Assembly (NCBI GenBank): GCA_028716665.1
Contig: JAQUPP010000001.1
Location: 477,046 to 541,045 of the forward strand
Reading direction: 5' to 3'
Source of the DNA: Patescibacteria group bacterium
Lineage (GTDB): Bacteria; Patescibacteriota; Patescibacteriia; UBA2591; JAQUPP01
DNA length: 64,000 nucleotides
A model generated the notes under the pieces. It ran no database searches. It saw only the letters and a list, made by a program, of their open reading frames with translations, and had not been told where the DNA came from. Position 1 is the stretch's first letter; each line of letters starts with the position of its first letter. The position numbers and the translations under genes are program-made. Below, piece by piece: positions 4,603-54,724 of the stretch.

Positions 4603-7600
4603 ATGAGCAACACAAAAAAGTTTTTTTCAATTTTCGTGACAGCCACAACCATTTTGTGGTCAATGGGGCTGCCAACATTAGCAGGGGCATTAGTACCCAT
4701 AGCCGTAACCAACATTACGGTCTCAACAACTTCCGCGGAAATTACATTTAACGGACAATTTTCCGCAGAGACAAGTCCATCCTCAACAACTGAATTAGGA
4801 AGTGTAACCAATTACGCGACAGATTTGCGTAATTTTATTTTTGAAACAGGAGCAGGACTGACAGACAGAACATTAAGTCGATTTAGTCCTTATGATATGT
4901 CAACTCAAAATTTTCAGGCGGGTGAAAATGATTATCGTTTGAGAGTTTACGGTTTGGAAAGTTTGAAATTAAGTGAAGGACAAGCTTGGCAGATGACAGC
5001 CGGAGATATTAAAAATTTAGCTGGAACTCAAACTATAGAAGATTTTACGGCCAATAATACTGTCACTGCTTCTATTGATCCGACTATCAATTATATAATA
5101 AATAATGTTACCGCTGATTCTTGTTATAATTATCCTTGCGGCAACGTCGGTGATGAAGTAACAATTATTGGTTCTAATTTTGCCACCTCCACTGATGCGA
5201 CAGAAATTTTTTGGAATTTTAATGGAGGAAGCGTAACATCCACTCCCGCAACCGCTTCAGCTACTGAGCTCACCACTACAATTCCAACCGGGTTAAATGG
5301 TAAAGTGGATATGGTGATTAGCGATTTAAATACGCATCGTTTTTCGGCTGACTCCAGGCCGTTTATGATTTGGAATAATACGCAAGCCGTATTAATCGGC
5401 AATCTTACTTCAGATACATCTACTGACATAGATCGTGTTCAAGTTGAAGCTTTTGTTCCCGGACAAATGGGAAATGTCGTACCGGGCGAAACTCATTCCA
5501 ATGGAAAATATGCCTTGGTTTTAAATACGACAGGAAGTTATAATATACAATTTGGCACACCGGCCGGCGCGACTTATGTGGCGCCATCCAAGTTAAGCAG
5601 TCAAACTGCCACTGTCGGCTCAGTAACGCAATTGACCACTCAAGCTTTTAGAGCCGCCACTCTTTCGGGTACAGTTAAATCTCCCAGTGGCGCAACACTA
5701 TTGGAAGGCGTAGAAGTGGTGGCGCGTCCTTTTACATGGGATTATGAACAAAGAACAACAACCGGTCCAAACGGAACATGGAAACTTTATGTACCAAATG
5801 ATACAAGCAGCCAATGTTATGAAATTGAAGCCAGACCTAAAGATTATCAAGACAGGGTTTTACAATATAAAAGCGTCAGAACTACTCAATGTTTAACTTC
5901 AGGTCAAACAGCAACAGGTATTAATATTAATTTATCTGCTCAAAATGTTAAGGTAACGATTAAAGCTCCGGGTACTTTAGGCGATACTCCTACGGCAAGT
6001 AATCCTCAGCCGGGTTTGCCGGTGCCTTATGCCAGTGTTGGTCTTCATACCATGGATTGGAGTTATCAACAATGGGTTCAAGCTGATGCTGACGGTGTGG
6101 CTTATTTTGGGGGAGCAACTGATAGTACTCATTATATTTTAGAACTTGAGCCGCCATATAGCGGTGATTTCAGAAGTTATCCAAGAACAAGAACTGCGGA
6201 ATTTGCCATTGATGTTACGGATGGACAAATCACTGATTTGGGAGTTAAAACTTTTGCTTTGCCAAATGTTTTTGGAAAAGTAAAATGCGGGGGCGTAGCA
6301 ACAGTCGCTTGGATAAATATGAATAAAGATGGTTCTTGGTATGGTGTAAATACTGATGATAGCGGTAATTTCTCTCTTGGCGGCGTGGCGATTGGTACTT
6401 ACAATCTCCAAATTCAACCGGCAAGCGGCAGTACTTGCGCCAGCGGAAATTTTTCCGTTTCCATTACTTCAACTACATCTAATGATTTGAAAGATCAAGC
6501 TGATACTCTTGATGGTGTTGACGATGACGCGTTTACTTTATCAGCACCCAATGTGACAGGTGTAATTAAAGATCCAACCAATACAACCGGACAAAGCGGA
6601 GTTTGGATTAATTTTTGTCCTCATCAAATACCAGGTATGTGCTATGGCGCCAACACGCAAAGTGACGGAACATTCAGTTCAAACGTTCCATCTGGCAATT
6701 GGGATTTAAATGTTAACATTCAATACGGCAGTCTTTATGCTGCGCCGCAAGGCATGGTAATAACTGTTGCCGGCACTACTATTACTGAGACATCAGATCC
6801 GGGCACTGCTTTAACAATTGCTAACAATAGTTTACTTATTTTATTAAGCGATCCGTCAGTTAATGGTTTAACCGGTCGTGTTTGTAAACCAAAACATGAT
6901 GATAATTCAGCTGTGACTCAAGCCGAATGCGATGATCCAGCTGGTTATCCTGATATTGGCGCAACTAATGTTGGTATTAATATGCGATCACAAGGTTCAA
7001 TGTCAGGTTCTCAATGGTCACAAACAGATGCTAGTGGTAATTATGCTATTGGCGGCGTGGCAGTTGGAACTTATGAAATAGAAGCAAATCCTTGGAATGG
7101 TTGCGGCAGTATTAATTGCGGGAGAAAACTTGTTCAAAATGTTACAGTTACCAGCTCTCAAGCAAGTAGAAGAAAAAATATAATTTTAAGCACTCCGAAT
7201 ATTACCGGTACGGTTGTTATTCCAAATACCAGCACAACAGTGGCTAATGCTTGGATTAATTTTCATATTGAAGGACCAATGCAGGGCGGTACTACCGGTG
7301 GTTGGTATGGCACAAACACTAATCAAAACGGTCAATTCTCTTTTGGCGGTGTAGCTGCCGGAACCTATGCTTTGGAAATTGAAGCTCCTCGTTGGGGTTC
7401 AGCCGAAGAACAGGCTGTTTATCGAAATTATTCAACAAAAAAATATTCTAATATTACAATTTCTTCCGCGGTGGCGGCCGGAACTGATAGTTTAGATTTG
7501 GGCACGACTTATGGAACTGATGGAAAACTTATTCTCGGCACGCCGCAAGTTACAGGAAGAGTAATGAATCCGGGTGCGGACGGTATTGCCGAAACCGCAG

Positions 7601-44111: not shown

Positions 44112-45305
44112 ATGCTCACTTGGATTGAAATTAAAAAACAAGCGATTAAACATAATCTTGGCCAATTCAGGAAAATTATCGGGCCGAAGGTGAAATTAAT
44201 GGCTGTGGTTAAAAGCAATGCTTACGGCCACGGAATAGTTGAAATAGCCAAAATTGCCTTAAAATCAGGGGCTAATTGGCTGGGGGTGGTTAATTTAGAC
44301 GAAGCGCTGATGCTTAGGCGGGCGAAAATCAAAGCCCCGATTTTTATTTTAAGCTACTGGCCCCTCACTTGCGGGCAAGAGAGAGACTACTGGGAAATGA
44401 TTGACCAAGTAAAAGAGGCGATTAAGCAAAATATTGATTTTCCTGTTTATACTTTTGAGCAAGCTGAATTTTTATCAAAAACCGCTAAAAGCATTAGAAA
44501 AAAAGTTAATATTCATATTAAAATTGATACCGGCGCGACCAGAATAGGCGTCTCAACCGAAGAAGCGGTTAATTTTATAAAAAGTATTAAGAATCTGCCA
44601 AATTTGAATATTGTCGGAATTTTTACTCATTACGCCGAATCAGAATCAAAAGATCAATCTTATACCAATCAACAAACGGAAAAATTTCAAAAAATATTAT
44701 CTTTGTTAAAATTTTTCGGCATTAAAATACCCTTGATTCACAGCGGTTGTTCGGCTTCAACAATTAATAATTCAAAAACATTTTTTAATTTGGTCAGAGT
44801 CGGCCTTGGCATGTACGGCCTTTATCCATCTGATTATACGAAAGTAAATGCTCAAAATAAAAAAAAATCCGCCCGAGGCGGATCGGCCTTGGGTCGAAAA
44901 GTTAAATTTGAACCGGCCTTATCATGGAAAACAAGAATTATTCAAATTAAAAATGTGCCTGCCGGAACTTTTGTCGGATATGACAGAACTTATCAAACAG
45001 ATAAAACGACAAAATTGGCTATTTTGCCAATCGGTTATTTCGACGGTTATGATCGCCATCTTTCAGACTGCGGCCAAGTTTTGATTCGCGGTAAATATTG
45101 CCCGATTCGCGGAAGAATTTGCATGAATTTAATAATGGTTGATGTCAGCAAAATACCTGACATCAAAGAAGGGGAAGAAGTGGTTTTAATCGGTAAACAA
45201 AATAAAAACGAAATTACAGTTGATGATTTGGCCAAGAAAATAGGCACTATCAATTACGAAGTAGTTTGCAGGATTAATTCATTAATTTTAAGAAAATATG
45301 TCTAA
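44112..45305 (+). CDS. alr: Alanine racemase
   Basis: MLTWIEIKKQAIKHNL...AVVKSNAYGHG (the PLP-Lys motif). I moved the start to 44112, because the tracked start at 44004 overlaps the upstream gene. Confidence 0.85.
   Translation: MLTWIEIKKQAIKHNLGQFRKIIGPKVKLMAVVKSNAYGHGIVEIAKIALKSGANWLGVVNLDEALMLRRAKIKAPIFILSYWPLTCGQERDYWEMIDQVKEAIKQNIDFPVYTFEQAEFLSKTAKSIRKKVNIHIKIDTGATRIGVSTEEAVNFIKSIKNLPNLNIVGIFTHYAESESKDQSYTNQQTEKFQKILSLLKFFGIKIPLIHSGCSASTINNSKTFFNLVRVGLGMYGLYPSDYTKVNAQNKKKSARGGSALGRKVKFEPALSWKTRIIQIKNVPAGTFVGYDRTYQTDKTTKLAILPIGYFDGYDRHLSDCGQVLIRGKYCPIRGRICMNLIMVDVSKIPDIKEGEEVVLIGKQNKNEITVDDLAKKIGTINYEVVCRINSLILRKYV
44859..44901. repeat. In-frame GC-rich palindromic insertion element inside alr, copy 1 of 3
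   Basis: aaaaaaaaatccGCCCGAGGCggatcgGCCTTGGGTCgaaaag. It encodes KKKSARGGSALGRK, and the stem CCCGAGGC/GCCTTGGG includes a G-U wobble. Confidence 0.6.
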
Positions 45306-47362: not shown

Positions 47363-47767
47363 ATGAAACTTATATTATATACAGATGGAGGCGCGAGAGG
47401 CAATCCCGGTCCGGCCGGCGCGGGGGGTGTAATTTATGATACTGACAAAAAAGTCGTAAAAAAATTTGCCCAATTTTTAGGCAAAGCAACCAATAATCAG
47501 GCTGAATATCAGGCCCTGGTTTTAGGGTTGGAATTGGCCAAAAAATTGTCCGCAAGTGAAGTAGATTGTTATTTGGACAGTTTATTGGTGGTTGAACAGA
47601 TGAATCAAAAATGGAAAATAAAAAATAAAGAATTAAGCGTTTTATTTGTTAAGGTTTGGAATCTTGCACAATCTTTTGAAAAAGTTAATTTTTATCATAT
47701 CCCGCGCGAAAAAAATGAGGAAGCGGATAAACTAGTTAATGAAATTATTGACAAAAATACTCTTTGA
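47363..47767 (+). CDS. rnhA: Ribonuclease HI
   Basis: LYTDGGARGNPGPAGAGGVIYD... with the RNase H type 1 catalytic DEDD pattern. Confidence 0.85.
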   Translation: MKLILYTDGGARGNPGPAGAGGVIYDTDKKVVKKFAQFLGKATNNQAEYQALVLGLELAKKLSASEVDCYLDSLLVVEQMNQKWKIKNKELSVLFVKVWNLAQSFEKVNFYHIPREKNEEADKLVNEIIDKNTL

Positions 47768-48227: not shown

Positions 48228-48235
48228 TTAACAGC

Positions 48236-48628
48236 AGACTGGATAATTGCCCCCCACCACTTTTAGACCTTATTTATGTTTATTTATTATAGAGTCTAAA
48301 AGTGGTGCGGGGAGGAAAGTCCGAACACTTCCCTGGCTTTAGTCAGGGAGCAGGGTAGCGGGTAACGCCCGTCCACAGTAATGTGAGAGGTGCGAACAGT
48401 GACGCCGCAATCCGAAAGGGTTGAGGCTTCCGAACTTGTTCGGAAGAATCCCAAAAGTAATTTTGGGAGTGAAACGGCCAAATCCTTACCTGAGTGAAAG
48501 ACCAAAGGCTTTGTGCTTTGCACAAGGCAAGGTAGGTCGCCAGAACCTTGATGTAAATCAGGGTCCAGATAAATAATTATCGCCTTTCGGGGTACAGAAT
48601 TCGGCTTATAGGTCTACAACAAAAAAAT
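48236..48628 (+). ncRNA. rnpB: RNase P RNA (bacterial type A)
   Basis: The P4 strands GGAGGAAAGTCCGAAC and ACAGAATTCGGCTTA are universally conserved. GGGTAACGCCCGTCC (P10-P12 region). A 15-bp P3 hairpin with an AT-rich loop lies at 48256-48312. A terminator hairpin follows at 48629-48660. The ends are approximate. Confidence 0.8.
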
Positions 48629-50071: not shown

Positions 50072-51592
50072 ATGAAAAAATTAGAATTAGAAACAATAAT
50101 CGGTTTGGAAATTCATTTGGAAAGCAAAACTCAGAGCAAGCTTTTTTGTTCTTGTTCCAATAATACCAAATTAACCGAACCGAATGTTCAGATTTGCCCG
50201 ATTTGTCTGGGTCAACCCGGCGTATTGCCTGTATTTAATAAAGAAGCTTTAAAAAATGTTTTGATTTTAGGATTGGCATTAAAAGGAAAAATAAATTTAA
50301 TTTCTTGGTTTGACAGAAAAAATTATTTTTATCCAGACTTGCCGAAGGGTTATCAAGTCAGCCAATACAGTTTGCCTTTTATCAAAGGCGGATGCGTTGA
50401 AATTGACAGCGCGGATGGCATCAGAAAAATATCTTTGGAAAGAATTCATCTTGAAGAAGATACGGCCAAACTGATACATTCTTCTGATGATCAATGGAGT
50501 TTGCTTGATTTTAATCGGGCCGGCGTGCCGTTGATGGAGATAGTGACAGAACCGTGTCTAAAATCTCCATTTGAAGCAAAAATATTTTTACAAGAACTTC
50601 GCACCATTGCCAGATATTTGAATATTTCCGAAGCAGATATGGAAAAAGGACAATTTCGCTGCGACGCCAATATTTCATTAAGGCCGCAAGGAGAGAAAAA
50701 ATATTTTCCAAAAACGGAAATTAAAAATTTAAATTCGTTTAAAGCGGTGGAAGATGCCTTGGAATATGAAATAGAAAGACAAACAAAACTTTGGCAAGAA
50801 AAAAAACAACCCAAAATATCGTCTACTCGGGGCTGGAATGAAAAGAAAAAAAATACTTATCCTCAGAGAAGCAAAGAAGATGTCCAAGATTATCGTTATT
50901 TTCCCGAGCCGGATCTTCCCTCAATTGATTTTAATGAACTTAAAAAAGAGGATATAGATTTGGAGCTATTGGAAAAAAATATTATTGAATTACCCGGAAT
51001 TCGCAAGAAACGCCTTATTCAAATGTATAATTTTTCTTCAATTGATGCGAATATTTTAATTGAAAATAAAGGATTGGTTGATTTTATTGAAGAAACACTG
51101 GTTAAATTAAGAGAATGGATTGTTTCTACTGATATAATTGATGGCACGGAAGAGGAAATTTGGGAAACATCCAAACATCAAATTTCAAAAGTAACCGCCA
51201 ATTGGCTGATTAATCGTCTATTACCCTTACTTAAAAAGGCGGGAAAAAATGAAAAAGATATTTCATCGGAAAAATTCGTTGAATTCATTGTTTTGATTTA
51301 TGAAAAAAAGATTTCAAGCACTCTGGCGCAGACGATACTGGAAAGAATGTTTATTAAAGATGAAAATTTGAGCCAAATTATGGATCATCCCAGTGTTAAA
51401 CAAATTGACAGCGAAGATAATTTAATTGATATTGTAAAAGAGGTTATTAAAAATAACCAAGATACGGTTATTAGATATAAACAGGGGAAACACCAGGTTG
51501 TTCAATATCTGATCGGACAAGTAATGAAAAAGACCAACGGGCAGGCAAATCCCAAGTTGGTCCAGGAATTATTTGAGAAAGAATTAAGCTAA
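50072..51592 (+). CDS. gatB: Asp-tRNA(Asn)/Glu-tRNA(Gln) amidotransferase subunit B
   Basis: IIGLEIHLESKTQSKLFCSCS...PGVLPV... plus a C-terminal GatB/YqeY domain. Confidence 0.9.
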   Translation: MKKLELETIIGLEIHLESKTQSKLFCSCSNNTKLTEPNVQICPICLGQPGVLPVFNKEALKNVLILGLALKGKINLISWFDRKNYFYPDLPKGYQVSQYSLPFIKGGCVEIDSADGIRKISLERIHLEEDTAKLIHSSDDQWSLLDFNRAGVPLMEIVTEPCLKSPFEAKIFLQELRTIARYLNISEADMEKGQFRCDANISLRPQGEKKYFPKTEIKNLNSFKAVEDALEYEIERQTKLWQEKKQPKISSTRGWNEKKKNTYPQRSKEDVQDYRYFPEPDLPSIDFNELKKEDIDLELLEKNIIELPGIRKKRLIQMYNFSSIDANILIENKGLVDFIEETLVKLREWIVSTDIIDGTEEEIWETSKHQISKVTANWLINRLLPLLKKAGKNEKDISSEKFVEFIVLIYEKKISSTLAQTILERMFIKDENLSQIMDHPSVKQIDSEDNLIDIVKEVIKNNQDTVIRYKQGKHQVVQYLIGQVMKKTNGQANPKLVQELFEKELS

Positions 51593-52567
51593 AAATTTTT
51601 TAATTAAAATTTGAGCTTGGTTTAATTTTTTAATCCACTTTATACGTTTGTCGCGTTTAAACCATGTAATTTGACGCTTGGCATAATGCCGAGTGTTTTT
51701 TTTAATCAAATCTGTGGCTTCAGGAAGAGTTATTTCATTTCGCAGATAAGAAATAATTTCTTTATAACCGATTCCGCTAAAAGCCCGCGAATGAGCAAGA
51801 CCTGTCTTTGCCAAGGCTCCGGTAGGCAGGTATTTTTTTATCAATTTTTTAACTTCATCTATTAATCCTATATCAATCATTTTATCAACGCGCTGATTGA
51901 TTTTTTGATATAAAGTCTGACGAGGCAAATTGATGCCGATTAAAAGAGTTTTAAAAAGCGGTTCACCTTTTTGACGCGCCTGAGAGAAAGGTTTTTTGGT
52001 TTTTAAACAAACTTCCAGGGCGCGAATAACGCGGCGAATATTTTCTTTTTGAATGAATTTTTTTGCTTCAGGGTCAAGTTTGATTAATTTTTTCCAGAGG
52101 TAATCAGGTCCGTATTGATTAGCCATTTTTTCCAGTTTTTTTCTTAATTTTTCATCAGGCGCGATTGCCGGAATATCAAAATTATCCACCAGAGAGCTGA
52201 TATATAAACCGGTTCCGCCCACTAAAAACGGAGTTTTATTTCTTTTTTGAATATCATCAATGATTTCTATCGCTTTTTGTTTGAATTGCGCTACGGTGAA
52301 TTCTTGATTCGGCTGTATAATATCAATCATGTGATGCTGAATTCCATTAATAATATATCTGTTCCGGGTTTTGGGCACTGCTTTGGCGGTACCAATATCC
52401 ATTCCTTTATAAATTGTCCGGCTGTCGGCGCAAATAATTTCTACGCCATGCCAGCCCGAGGCTGGTCGGCCTTGGGCCGAAATTTTTTTTGCCAATTTTA
52501 AAGCTATATCAGTTTTGCCTGAAGCGGTAGGACCTAAAATAACAATGAGTTTTTTACGATTTGACAT
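51584..52567 (-). CDS. miaA: tRNA dimethylallyltransferase
   Basis: P-loop LIVILGPTASGKT, then ...ICADSRTIYKGMDIGTAK.... It carries a 12-aa in-frame insertion (see the repeat at 52449-52490). Confidence 0.85.
   Translation of the reverse strand: MSNRKKLIVILGPTASGKTDIALKLAKKISAQGRPASGWHGVEIICADSRTIYKGMDIGTAKAVPKTRNRYIINGIQHHMIDIIQPNQEFTVAQFKQKAIEIIDDIQKRNKTPFLVGGTGLYISSLVDNFDIPAIAPDEKLRKKLEKMANQYGPDYLWKKLIKLDPEAKKFIQKENIRRVIRALEVCLKTKKPFSQARQKGEPLFKTLLIGINLPRQTLYQKINQRVDKMIDIGLIDEVKKLIKKYLPTGALAKTGLAHSRAFSGIGYKEIISYLRNEITLPEATDLIKKNTRHYAKRQITWFKRDKRIKWIKKLNQAQILIKKFLA
52449..52490. repeat. In-frame GC-rich palindromic insertion element inside miaA, copy 2 of 3
   Basis: The plus strand reads gccaGCCCGAGGCtggtcgGCCTTGGGCcgaaatttttttt. 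On the minus strand it encodes SAQGRPASGWHG between the P-loop and the ICADS segment. Confidence 0.6.
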
Positions 52568-52607: not shown

Positions 52608-53369
52608 ATGAATATTTTTATAAAAACATTACTTGGCGAAACTCATCCTCTTAATTTATTGTTTTATTTATTGCTTTGCGCCGGCCCGACATTATTATGG
52701 TTCTTCTTTTGTTTAAGATTTGATCGCCGGCAGCCGGAACCAAAACGCGAGATTTTTAAATTTTTCAGTTTGGGGGCGATTATTACCATCCCTTTAATTT
52801 TTATTGCCGGGCCAATAACGAATTGGGTGGAACAAAATTTGTTATTAAATTCAATTTTAATAATTTTTATTTTGTCTTTTTTGGTTGATGGCCTGATTGA
52901 AGAATTGGCTAAATACGTTTTATTAAATTGGAGTCTTTATCGTTGCCGTTATTTTGATGAGATAAAAGACGGTTTTGTTTACGGTATGAGTCTCAGTTTG
53001 GGTTTGGCATTTACGGAAAATATTCTTTATGCTCTTTTTTCTAAAGATTTAGCCAACGGATCTGTGATTTTATTATTCAGGGGTTTCACCACTACTTTTA
53101 TGCATTATTTGTCAGGAGGAATTATCGGTTATCATTTGGCAATGGCTAAATTTTATAAGGGTAAAAGAATGACTCAGAAAATGTTTAAGTTTAGGGGTTT
53201 GATTTTAGCCATTCTGCTCCACGGATTATATAACAGCATTATCAGATTTAATTTTATGTGGGGTTTTATACCTCTGGCGATTATTCTCTGGATTGTATAT
53301 TTTATTATTGTTTACGAAATGAAAGCGACTACAAACAACCTTCTAGGCCCCACGAAGCCGCTTGAGTAA
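52608..53369 (+). CDS. PrsW-family intramembrane protease (CPBP-like)
   Basis: EELAKY (the EExxK motif), FTENxLY, an HxxxN/D-like motif (LLHGLYN) and multiple TM helices. I moved the start to the ATG at 52608 to avoid overlapping miaA. Confidence 0.5.
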   Translation: MNIFIKTLLGETHPLNLLFYLLLCAGPTLLWFFFCLRFDRRQPEPKREIFKFFSLGAIITIPLIFIAGPITNWVEQNLLLNSILIIFILSFLVDGLIEELAKYVLLNWSLYRCRYFDEIKDGFVYGMSLSLGLAFTENILYALFSKDLANGSVILLFRGFTTTFMHYLSGGIIGYHLAMAKFYKGKRMTQKMFKFRGLILAILLHGLYNSIIRFNFMWGFIPLAIILWIVYFIIVYEMKATTNNLLGPTKPLE

Positions 53370-54624
53370 TTTTTACATTGTAAAACTCGTTAATTTTTAT
53401 TAATGAGTTTTCCTGCCCAGGGCCGGTCAGCCTTGGGCTGATATTTTTTAAAAATATTTTAATATGTTTAAAAGTATCAGTCACACCGTAAAGATTATTT
53501 TTTTTATCATAACCGATTATTAACACTTCTATAATTTTTCCGATATATTTTTTATTATTTTCCAAAGCCGTTTTTTTTAAAATTTCATTTAAAATTTCTT
53601 CGCGTTGTTTTTTTTCTTCCTTGGTTACGTTATCTTTAAAAGTTTTGGCCGCCAAGGTTTGAGGACGAGGGGAGTATTGGGCAAGATAAGCCATGTCAAA
53701 TTTTAGAGAGCGCATCAATTTAGCTGTATCGTTAAATTGTTTTTTTGTTTCGCCCGGAAAACCGACAATAATGTCAGTGGAAATGCTGAGATTTTGTATT
53801 TTTCCACGAAGCTTTTTAATCAGATTCTTATAATAAGATACGGTATAATGCCGGTTCATTTTTTTAAGTATTTCGTTATTGCCGGCCTGTATCGGCAAGT
53901 GCATATATGGCCCGACTTTCTTACATTCAGCGATGGTATTAATGAGTTCGTCAGTCAAATCTTTTGGATGATTGGTGATAAATCTTAACCAAAATTTACC
54001 CGGCAAATTATCCACCATTTTTAAAAGTTGGGAAAAATTAACATCGTTTTTTTGATAAGAATTTACGTTTTGTCCCAATAAAATTATTTCTTTATAATTG
54101 TCTTTTAATAATTTTTTAATTTCGGAAATAATGATTTTTGGAGATCTGGAGGTTTCTCGGCCTCGGGTGTAGGGGACGACGCAATAAGCGCAGAAGTTGT
54201 TGCAGCCGGTCATAATCGGCACATAAGCGGTAATAGGCGAAGAAATAACGGGTAAAATGGATAAATAGTCATCGGTTTGTTTGTTCTGTTGTTTGGTTAA
54301 AAATTTTGTTAATTTTGGCAAATCTTTTATATCAAATATCAAATCAAATTTTTCTTTTAATTTATTTTTATCTTTTAAGAGAACGCAGCCGGTTAAAATA
54401 ATTTTAAGATTAGGATTCTGTTTTTTAATTCGATTAAAATTTTTAATCATTCCGTAAACCCGATCTACAGCTTTTTGGCGAACCGAACACATATTAACAA
54501 TAATCAAATCCGCCTCGTTAATTTTTGAGGTTTCTTTATATCCGATATTTTCCAAAACTGCGGCGATTCTTTCTGAATCGCTTTTATTCATTTGGCAACC
54601 GAAAGTGATAAGATTGTATTTCAT
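53329..54624 (-). CDS. miaB: tRNA-i6A37 methylthiotransferase MiaB (radical SAM)
   Basis: MKYNLITFGCQMNKSDSE (MTTase N-terminus), radical SAM CxxxCxxC (CNNFCAYC) and a C-terminal TRAM domain. The start is set at the ATG at 54622-54624; the tracked start is a TTG 30 nt upstream. The 3' end overlaps prsW by 41 nt. Confidence 0.85.
   Translation of the reverse strand: MKYNLITFGCQMNKSDSERIAAVLENIGYKETSKINEADLIIVNMCSVRQKAVDRVYGMIKNFNRIKKQNPNLKIILTGCVLLKDKNKLKEKFDLIFDIKDLPKLTKFLTKQQNKQTDDYLSILPVISSPITAYVPIMTGCNNFCAYCVVPYTRGRETSRSPKIIISEIKKLLKDNYKEIILLGQNVNSYQKNDVNFSQLLKMVDNLPGKFWLRFITNHPKDLTDELINTIAECKKVGPYMHLPIQAGNNEILKKMNRHYTVSYYKNLIKKLRGKIQNLSISTDIIVGFPGETKKQFNDTAKLMRSLKFDMAYLAQYSPRPQTLAAKTFKDNVTKEEKKQREEILNEILKKTALENNKKYIGKIIEVLIIGYDKKNNLYGVTDTFKHIKIFLKNISPRLTGPGQENSLIKINEFYNVKITQAASWGLEGCL
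53411..53449. repeat. In-frame GC-rich palindromic element inside the miaB TRAM-domain region, copy 3 of 3 (diverged)
   Basis: tcctGCCCAGGGCcggtcaGCCTTGGGCtgatatttttt, which encodes ...ISPRLTGPGQ... on the minus strand. Confidence 0.5.
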
Positions 54625-54724
54625 ATGAGTTGATAATAAATTAACGAGCCCCAAAGGGGCCCCGTTGGGGTCAACGAATCTTTTACTCGTTAACTTGCCA
54701 AACTCGTTAATTATTTTGCTTTGA

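Follow-up and report, generated by a model that had tools for sequence, protein, structure and literature searches.

A 30-bp GC-rich double hairpin inserted in frame in alr, miaA and miaB of a Patescibacteria genome and its association with a tRNA-linked GIY-YIG cassette

Introduction

Why do three unrelated housekeeping genes of one bacterium, alr, miaA and miaB, carry the same short GC-rich palindrome within their reading frames? The three genes lie in a 64-kb stretch of DNA (contig JAQUPP010000001.1 of assembly GCA_028716665.1; the whole stretch is called the window below) from an ultra-small bacterium of the Patescibacteria, or candidate phyla radiation (CPR). Patescibacteria have tiny streamlined genomes, odd insertions in their rRNA genes and unusually divergent proteins. 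A preliminary description, made from the letters of the window, had taken the palindrome for an integrating repeat comparable to the palindromic elements of Rickettsia. Our results indicate that the three segments are insertions of a 30-bp GC-rich element which is gained and lost quickly, that this element spans many classes of Patescibacteria, and that it is a constant part of a tRNA-linked cassette encoding a small GIY-YIG protein.

Results

The same 30-nt unit lies in frame in alr, miaA and miaB

As delimited here, the element is a GC-rich unit of exactly 30 nt. Copy 1 (TCCGCCCGAGGCGGATCGGCCTTGGGTCGA; 44868-44897, plus strand) lies in the alanine racemase gene alr (44112-45305, plus strand) and is composed of TCCGCC-CGA-GGCGGA and TCGGCC-TTG-GGTCGA, with hairpin 1 at 44868-44882 and hairpin 2 at 44883-44897 of the plus strand. 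Copy 2 (CCAGCCCGAGGCTGGTCGGCCTTGGGCCGA; 52451-52480, plus strand) lies in the tRNA dimethylallyltransferase gene miaA (51584-52567, minus strand) and is composed of CCAGCC-CGA-GGCTGG and TCGGCC-TTG-GGCCGA. Copy 3 (CCTGCCCAGGGCCGGTCAGCCTTGGGCTGA; 53412-53441, plus strand) lies in the C-terminal part of miaB (53329-54624, minus strand; start ATG at 54624, placed by alignment with a sister genome) and is composed of CCTGCC-CAG-GGCCGG, with one mismatch within the stem of hairpin 1, and TCAGCC-TTG-GGCTGA. The MiaA protein of the window is 100% identical to a protein from Patescibacteria metagenome-assembled genomes (MAGs; P0121, GCA_028713475.1 and GCA_028690995.1). The pattern GCCCRRGGC-N6-GCCTTGGG matched the plus strand at 44871, 52454 and 53415, against 0.01 matches expected from 100 shuffles, and a looser search with a 22-point score revealed no further or degenerate copies within the 64 kb. 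Outside the 30-nt unit, the flanks of the three copies do not align with one another. The GC content of the window is about 35%.

Each copy is in frame within a long open reading frame (ORF). Alr reads copy 1 in the sense of the gene (...KKK[SARGGSALGR]KV...), MiaA reads copy 2 as its reverse complement (...KKI[SAQGRPASGW]HGV...), and MiaB, encoded on the minus strand, reads copy 3 in a phase that avoids the TGA of the copy (...KN[ISPRLTGPGQ]EN...). These data agree with the preliminary description as to the copies in the three genes, their in-frame placement on either coding strand and the existence of one common sequence unit. Its estimate of about 26 bp falls short of the 30 nt common to all copies, and the 10-16 added residues that it assigned to each copy were not confirmed, as the insert proper accounts for 10 residues (30 nt) plus 0-2 extra ones. 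The common plus-strand orientation that it pointed out is real for the three copies but has little meaning, because the unit is nearly palindromic and, in the larger sample described below, is found in either orientation with respect to genes.

The element is a pair of tandem hairpins with covarying stems

Further copies were collected by scanning one genome per species with GCCCRRGGCNNNTCRGCCTTGGG (at least 120 matches) and by scanning metagenomes with the commonest stems fixed and both loops free (TCCGCCNNNGGCGGATCRGCCNNNGGCYGA; at least 120 matches). From each matching locus 8-15 kb of sequence was fetched, giving about 240 loci. The architecture of the element is two tandem 15-nt hairpins, N3-GCC-(N-R-A)-GGC-N3' followed by N3-GCC-(T-Y-N)-GGC-N3'. 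With N-R-A in loop 1 and T-Y-N in loop 2, the unit amounts to a single asymmetric hairpin repeated in inverted orientation. In single-stranded form, the DNA of copies 1 and 2 was predicted to form two adjacent 6-bp hairpins with 3-nt loops (-9 and -12.5 kcal/mol), and that of copy 3, with its mismatched first stem, to prefer a long 9-bp hairpin. As RNA, the double-hairpin and long-hairpin folds compete (-16 to -19.5 kcal/mol).

The outer stem of hairpin 1, whose positions were free in the search pattern, was fully Watson-Crick in 92 of 105 copies, compared with a mean of 35 and a maximum of 46 in shuffles, and occurred in at least six complementary versions (TCC/GGA, CCA/TGG, CCC/GGG, TCA/TGA, TGA/TCA and TGG/CCA). 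The same stem was paired in 1 of 18 high-GC chance matches. In hairpin 2, G-C pairs switch to A-T pairs in concert across copies. Strict double hairpins numbered 225 in 1.53 Mb of fetched loci and 0 in their shuffled versions. Among the matches listed from the free-loop metagenome scan, AAA/TCT, AGA/TTT and AGA/TCT were the common loop pairs and CGA/TTG was in the minority. The CGA/TTG type is one subfamily of a much larger variable-loop family. Loop pairs were fully complementary in 15 of 128 copies; the middle pair showed no excess over shuffles, and only the outermost loop position covaried (77 Watson-Crick pairs versus 52 in shuffles). Since the stems covary while the loops vary, the double hairpin is the conserved structure. 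The single 8-bp stem with a G-U wobble proposed earlier does not hold as the main fold, for its central pairs are not kept across copies, and the long single hairpin (8/9 bp) was retained solely as an alternative conformation.

The insertions are polymorphic between close relatives

The three genes were compared with those of a sister genome, MAG GCA_028717225.1 (locus L246 for miaA and miaB), which is about 88% identical to the window (86-90% nucleotide identity in these genes) and roughly 11% diverged. All three sites are empty in the sister genome. Relative to the sister, the window has 36 additional nt in alr (89.9% identity), 33 in miaA (86.3%) and exactly 30, or 10 aa, in miaB (90.2%), leaving 6, 3 and 0 nt, respectively, beyond the 30-nt unit. 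Two further sites are empty in the window and filled in the sister. At 44488-44495 in alr (plus strand), the sister carries a copy near 44492 in the opposite orientation, read as SAQGRSASGG, and at 47552-47556 in rnhA (plus strand), it carries a 30-nt copy near 47554 (TCGGCCCAAGGCCGATCCGCCTCGGGCGGA). The two genomes therefore differ reciprocally by 5 element indels in about 8.9 kb of aligned sequence.

A similar picture emerged from the homologous proteins. The closest Alr homologue (P0001, 96% identity) contains the same SARGGSALGR, and the next (P0002, 90% identity) lacks it but contains SAQGRSASGG, which is the reverse-complement reading of the same element, at another position. The MiaA proteins P0122-P0124, with 81-86% identity, lack the insert. 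In the more distant P0125 (72%) and P0136 (63%), however, a variant of the element fills the identical site, and the three scattered lineages in which the site is occupied have a common junction, ...[element]-(H/N)GV-EII. Because P0125 and P0136 are filled at this site, a recent insertion in miaA is likely but not certain; the site may be a hot spot for insertion or else an old polymorphism. The Alr and MiaA inserts fall in alignment gaps against the solved structures PDB 5irp and PDB 2qgn, respectively. Comparison with orthologues, which had been named earlier as the means of recognizing lineage-specific insertions, thus supports insertion, as the Alr, MiaA and MiaB of the sister all lack the segments.

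Coding copies avoid stop codons

The version of hairpin 2 with G-C pairs is stop-free in all six frames, and the version with A-T pairs (TCAGCC...GGCTGA) is interrupted by TGA in one phase of each strand. A copy was counted as coding when the ORF extended at least 50 codons without a stop to either side of the element. By this measure, 50 of 212 scorable copies lay inside long ORFs. G-C copies were inside ORFs about as often as random positions of the same loci (31 of 58, or 53%, versus 55.5%). A-T copies were inside ORFs in 19 of 154 cases, all in stop-free phases, a depletion of about four-fold. The commonest peptide readings were SAQGRSASGG and SARGGSALGR. The element is tolerated inside genes because its length equals 10 codons and its G-C stem variant is stop-free.

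Apparent read-through of the TGA of the element was found in 6 cases, four of which were inspected, and none of these was an interruption of a gene interior. In L021 and L045 (between rplJ and rplL), the element lies at the 3' end of a gene, to which it contributes a short tail together with the stop codon, and L206 and L214 are weak ORF cases, the upstream ORF of L214 looking non-coding. The remaining pair consists of tandem copies in L165 that adjoin a tRNA. Interruption of genes by the element's own TGA was therefore rejected, since the inspected cases are gene 3' ends or weak ORFs. Phases with a stop inside the insert are avoided in ORFs, and removal of the insert from RNA would make such stops harmless. 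The frame statistics therefore suggest that the insert most likely stays in the mRNA and is translated as a 10-residue loop rich in Gly, Ser, Ala, Pro and Arg at tolerant positions.

The element is widespread in Patescibacteria

The two scans together yielded more than 230 copies, mostly in MAGs labelled as Patescibacteria and covering at least 12 candidate classes. Host labels among the matches listed were Patescibacteria, Paceibacteria, Saccharibacteria, Doudna-, Morani-, Uhr-, Kaiser- and Magasanikbacteria as well as Giovannoni-, Falkow-, Wildermuth-, Portnoy-, Niyogi-, Vogel- and Buchananbacteria. Most matching MAGs had GC contents of 32-58%. The copies have unrelated flanks and occur in coding and non-coding DNA, in both orientations and in all reading phases. 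The search for copies elsewhere, the second check named in the preliminary description, thus also supports insertion. Loci bearing labels outside the CPR include L088, L092, L095-L097, L109, L113, L116 and L118, recorded as Gammaproteobacteria, Pseudomonadales, Bdellovibrionales and Elusimicrobiaceae in TPA_asm MAG records. Several of them also have the GIY-YIG-tRNA cassette described below and may be mislabelled Patescibacteria bins.

High-GC matches, such as those in Methylobacterium, lack the outer stems and were discarded as chance matches. A search of viral contigs (IMG/VR) with the strict pattern gave two matches only, both high-GC chance matches without outer stems, and a viral origin of the element was rejected on this result. 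In Rfam, no family overlapped the three copies of the window at E values up to 10, apart from VrrA at chance level (20.5 bits against a threshold of 50 bits), and 18 related loci with recurrent flanks had no match. Searches of open-access papers and bioRxiv found no description of the element, of its commonest two peptides, of the exact DNA strings or of the cassette; the publication that came nearest deals with insertions in CPR rRNA genes (PMC11270868).

Copies have A/T-rich flanks and are enriched close to tRNA genes

Across 100 copies, the sequence immediately upstream was rich in T (70% at -2) and that immediately downstream rich in A (67% at +2), consistent with the A/T-rich flanks noted for the copies of the window. 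Exact flanking direct repeats of at least 9 nt accompanied 16.4% of copies, compared with 0.9-1.5% in two controls, and reached 19 nt in L077 and 40 nt in a tandem array in L165. Elements were also found nested in elements (L112, L229 and L252) and in the loops of other palindromes (L135 and the L126 group). In L126, L132, L154, L202 and L214, the element lies within the loop of a repeated palindrome, GTCATTCCGG(G/C)CAAGCTGGCGAT[element]AGCTAGCG...CCGGAAT.

A tRNA gene was present within 100 nt of 36 of the 230 copies, compared with 2.7% for random positions, an enrichment of about six-fold. None of the 230 copies was inside an intact tRNA; in the tRNA-adjoining cases, the neighbouring tRNA has been partly duplicated, and the element takes the place of the D-loop, anticodon-loop or T-loop in the duplicate. 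The 64-kb window itself contains no tRNA genes. In L165 (2550-2789), at least 4 tandem copies of a 70-nt unit, made up of the element and 40 nt, adjoin a tRNA-Arg gene. In L106 (1436-1530), a decayed tRNA-Ile duplicate holds the element together with two other GC-rich palindromes (CCCGCCCGAACGACTGACGTCGTTCAGTCGGGCGGG and CCCGCCTAGGCGGG), and several hairpin families appear to accumulate in this tRNA pseudo-copy. A recurrent context was seen in soil metagenome contigs of 50-59% GC (L139, L151, L159, L175, L186, L188 and L197), where the element is embedded as ..AG(G/A)CCCATT[element]GCCTTCG..CGGAAGGC.., with conservation extending about 20-60 nt to either side and without an Rfam match; in L188, a RAYT-like gene (for REP-associated tyrosine transposase, REP standing for repetitive extragenic palindrome) lies 1.4 kb away.

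The element is joined to a GIY-YIG gene and a split tRNA

The ORFs of the approximately 240 loci were clustered to find protein families neighbouring the element. The most widespread of these was a small GIY-YIG protein (PF01541, E = 4e-14 to 5e-12), encoded by 31 genes in 27 loci. The element lies 6-200 nt (mostly 6-35 nt) upstream of the start in 16 of the genes and just downstream of four more. The cassette begins with 12-45 nt from the 5' end of a tRNA, in which the element occupies the D-loop or anticodon-loop position. After a few nucleotides comes a GIY-YIG ORF of 80-100 aa and then an intact copy of the same tRNA, located at or overlapping the stop of the ORF; the 5' end of this tRNA often contains the stop codon. 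As the loci had been chosen for the element, the layout was retested on GIY-YIG genes chosen by protein homology alone, and the same element-ORF-tRNA layout was present in 5 of 5. All named homologues of the GIY-YIG protein are from Patescibacteria.

These proteins consist of a bare catalytic domain of about 85 aa without a DNA-binding domain. Among proteins of solved structure, they come closest to UPF0213 proteins (E = 1e-5) and to SLX1, a structure-specific nuclease, with I-TevI reaching only E = 0.89, and the homing endonuclease families of PHROG matched the GIY-YIG protein weakly.

Discussion

A probable mobile palindrome and its candidate nuclease

The empty sites in the sister genome and the abundance of copies with unrelated flanks support the view, already taken in the preliminary description, of an integrating palindromic repeat inserted in frame. 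We consider it likely that the element is a mobile mini-palindrome which has inserted in genes and is possibly mobilised by the SLX1/UPF0213-like nuclease. In such a mechanism, the small GIY-YIG nuclease would recognise the hairpins of the element or an extruded cruciform and make breaks through which the cassette and solo copies would be copied into new sites. T/A-rich or loop-forming DNA would be the preferred target, and repair synthesis would leave flanking duplications of variable length. The cassette would be autonomous, and copies standing alone, among them the ones in alr, miaA and miaB, would be non-autonomous passengers of the system, a relation which may be likened to that between REP elements, or REPINs (inverted REP doublets), and the RAYT transposase. 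Variable flanking duplications together with loop-forming or A/T-rich targets fit break and repair better than a classical transposase. Judging from gene arrangement, the GIY-YIG nuclease may be the mobilising partner of the element, which we suggest tentatively. With somewhat more reserve, we propose that the whole could be an undescribed two-part system, in which a structure-reading GIY-YIG nuclease, housed in a cassette that splits and regenerates a tRNA, would disperse a 30-bp "mini-REPIN".

Several observations weigh against this interpretation. The flanking duplications are variable (0-40 nt), are missing from most copies and fit no simple transposase. No nuclease or transposase gene was found in the 64-kb window by tblastn, so that the link to the nuclease rests, for this genome, on other genomes. 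The element might serve the nuclease gene otherwise than as a substrate, for example as a structure in the 5' untranslated region or as a disruptor of the residual tRNA fragment. Approximately 15 low-GC loci with perfect elements carry non-CPR labels as recorded. The loops are weakly complementary (15 of 128), and a cruciform or long-hairpin form is not clearly under selection. Finally, the occupied miaA sites of three scattered lineages could stem from an old insertion with later losses.

Alternative explanations

It is unlikely that a RAYT-like HUH (Y1) tyrosine transposase, instead of the GIY-YIG nuclease, moves the element as a REP/REPIN-type repeat. Two inverted short hairpins are indeed the layout of a miniature REPIN, and Y1_Tnp-like genes (PF01797, HxH motif) occur in 5 of the approximately 240 loci. 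However, a distance of 1-6 kb separates these genes from the element, and hairpins resembling it are absent beside them in those 5 loci. Neither the consensus of the element nor its flanks contain GTAG or CGTC, the element is not confined to extragenic DNA, and the adjacency to GIY-YIG genes is far tighter and was seen in all five of the genes chosen without bias. REP and REPIN elements share with the present one the short GC-rich hairpins in inverted doublets; they occur in many copies per genome and are presumably moved in trans by a single-copy nuclease gene adjoining a repeat (PMC3733652; see also Bertels and Rainey). REPs are extragenic, carry a GTAG/CGTC tag and depend on an HUH Y1 enzyme, whereas the present copies are both intragenic and intergenic and untagged, and the gene adjoining them encodes a GIY-YIG nuclease. 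With extragenic location, tag and flanked Y1 gene all lacking, RAYT as the partner and membership in the REP/RAYT group were rejected. An assignment to the miniature inverted-repeat transposable elements was likewise rejected, because no parent insertion sequence was found and the variable flanking duplications are present in a minority of copies.

Just as improbable is a cis element beneficial to the host, one that would bind a conserved CPR protein, stabilise or terminate mRNAs or mark tRNA operons for processing, for example, and would have spread by its usefulness. The conservation of the stem sequence over deep lineages, the fixed position upstream of GIY-YIG ORFs and beside tRNAs, the stability of the RNA hairpins (-16 to -19.5 kcal/mol) and the T-runs after some copies would accord with such a role. 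On the other hand, unrelated genes contain copies in either orientation and in every phase, and copies are gained and lost between genomes about 11% apart. They show no consistent gene-end position or T-run and match no Rfam family, and a useful site has no need to be placed inside alr, miaA, miaB or rnhA.

Considerably less probable is that the segments are ancestral and have been precisely deleted in relatives. The common junction of the miaA site in three scattered lineages and the capacity of hairpins to promote deletion would be compatible with this, but most Alr and MiaA homologues, near and far, as well as the solved structures, lack the segments. Moreover, the same 30-mer occurs at hundreds of unrelated sites, the sister genomes differ reciprocally at five sites, and elements are nested in elements (L112, L252 and L229). 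We give similarly little weight to the idea that the insert never reaches the proteins and leaves them unchanged, being either excised from the RNA like an intron or skipped by the ribosome in the manner of mitochondrial byp elements. The hairpins are strong, and insertions in CPR rRNA genes are known to be removed from transcripts (PMC11270868). Yet the TGA-bearing variant is about four-fold depleted from ORFs and never interrupts a gene interior, and the length, a multiple of three, together with the dominance of the benign phases SAQGRSASGG and SARGGSALGR, points to selection on the peptide. An error of assembly or sequencing, or a GC island arisen by chance, has nothing in its favour but the small size of the feature and is practically negligible given hundreds of independent assemblies from many projects, compensatory stems, preserved reading frames and 0 matches in shuffles.

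Comparison with known palindromic and nuclease systems

The Rickettsia palindromic elements (RPEs) are about 100-150 bp long, known only from Rickettsia and not especially GC-rich, and we know of no partner enzyme for them. Like the present element, they are palindromic repeats inserted in frame in conserved protein genes, readable in either orientation, and differ between close relatives. In contrast, the present element is 30 bp long, occurs across Patescibacteria and is tied to tRNA genes and to the GIY-YIG cassette. The parallel with RPEs drawn in the preliminary description thus stands for in-frame insertion and readability in both directions, and membership among them is excluded by length and host alone. 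The GC clusters of yeast mitochondrial DNA and the double-hairpin or palindromic elements of fungal mitochondria (PMC4478555, PMC7218506) are likewise GC-rich palindromes of 30-60 bp in an AT-rich genome, which vary between strains, sometimes lie in coding sequence, make short target duplications and have no transposase of their own. They differ in being organellar, species-specific families that are not known to be linked to tRNA fragments or to a nuclease cassette. The element thus resembles RPEs and mitochondrial GC clusters in its behaviour, and REPINs in its architecture.

As for the nuclease, the free-standing GIY-YIG gene segB of phage T4 (PMC2330249) is similarly small and lodged among tRNA genes, and genes of this type presumably also spread by double-strand break and repair. 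The SegB-type proteins have a DNA-binding domain, whereas the CPR proteins are reduced to the domain of about 85 aa that is closest to UPF0213 and SLX1; in addition, the 5' part of the tRNA is duplicated in the CPR cassette, of which the double hairpin is an invariable component. The CPR proteins possess the GIY-YIG catalytic domain (PF01541), as do free-standing homing endonucleases of this type, and the duplicated tRNA 5' fragment flanking the ORF is only an indirect sign of possible homing-type cleavage and gene conversion. Insertions reported in CPR rRNA genes include short ORF-less ones that are not introns and GIY-YIG-encoding ones, situated at the tips or bases of stem-loops (PMC11270868). 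The study that reported them covers rRNA genes only and mentions no 30-bp double hairpin, insertion in protein genes or tRNA cassette.

Implications

A selfish 30-bp palindrome entering essential genes in frame at a rate near that of random positions would explain part of the divergence of CPR proteins. If the proposed reading is true, a stop-free element of 10 codons colonises housekeeping genes at a near-neutral rate and adds 10-residue loops to CPR proteins, and its nuclease system would be a GIY-YIG counterpart of RAYT and REPIN and a source of many small protein and RNA insertions in the CPR. The inserts could mislead gene callers, alignments and structure predictions, and the turnover of copies between genomes about 11% apart could provide a fine-scale marker for strain tracking. 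The GIY-YIG nuclease may be a very small structure-specific enzyme, and, through its constant pairing with the element in a cassette that splits tRNA genes, it offers a candidate, open to experiment, for a nuclease-palindrome partnership of a new kind. Some Saccharibacteria are culturable in co-culture and genetically manipulable.

Other variable segments and features of the locus

Besides the 30-nt unit, other variable segments lie in and around the three genes. In alr, a 33-nt segment at 44361-44393 (CCCCTCACTTGCGGGCAAGAGAGAGAC plus TACTGG) forms an imperfect hairpin with TACTGG direct repeats at its borders; it is missing in P0001 and P0002, yet the Alr of Bacillus has residues there, and it may reflect an insertion or a deletion. 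MiaA has a second variable segment at 51794-51830 (LPTGALAKTGLA), which corresponds to a gap in solved structures. At the same place, the sister locus L246 (about 4740-4790) has a different sequence with a single 16-nt hairpin (TCCGCCAGCTGGCGGA), which resembles half an element with a loop of 4 nt. The spacer between thrS and miaB contains, at 54649-54670 on the minus strand, a 22-nt double hairpin of a different family, CCCCAACGGGG followed by CCCCTTTGGGG. It is missing at the same spot of the sister and looks like a second family of polymorphic mini-palindromes. The MiaA homologue P0209 contains one stretch of about 45 aa (…NEAPRSNLRGIKRNPP…GGF.GFSAPASPQRTAEYSAT) twice, at separate positions, and CPR proteins thus seem to have in-frame insertions of a larger, RPE-like repeat as well. 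The window further encodes a bacterial RNase P RNA of class A at 48231-48624 (121 bits, above the gathering score), which lies between the genes on the rnhA side and the sugar transferase gene.

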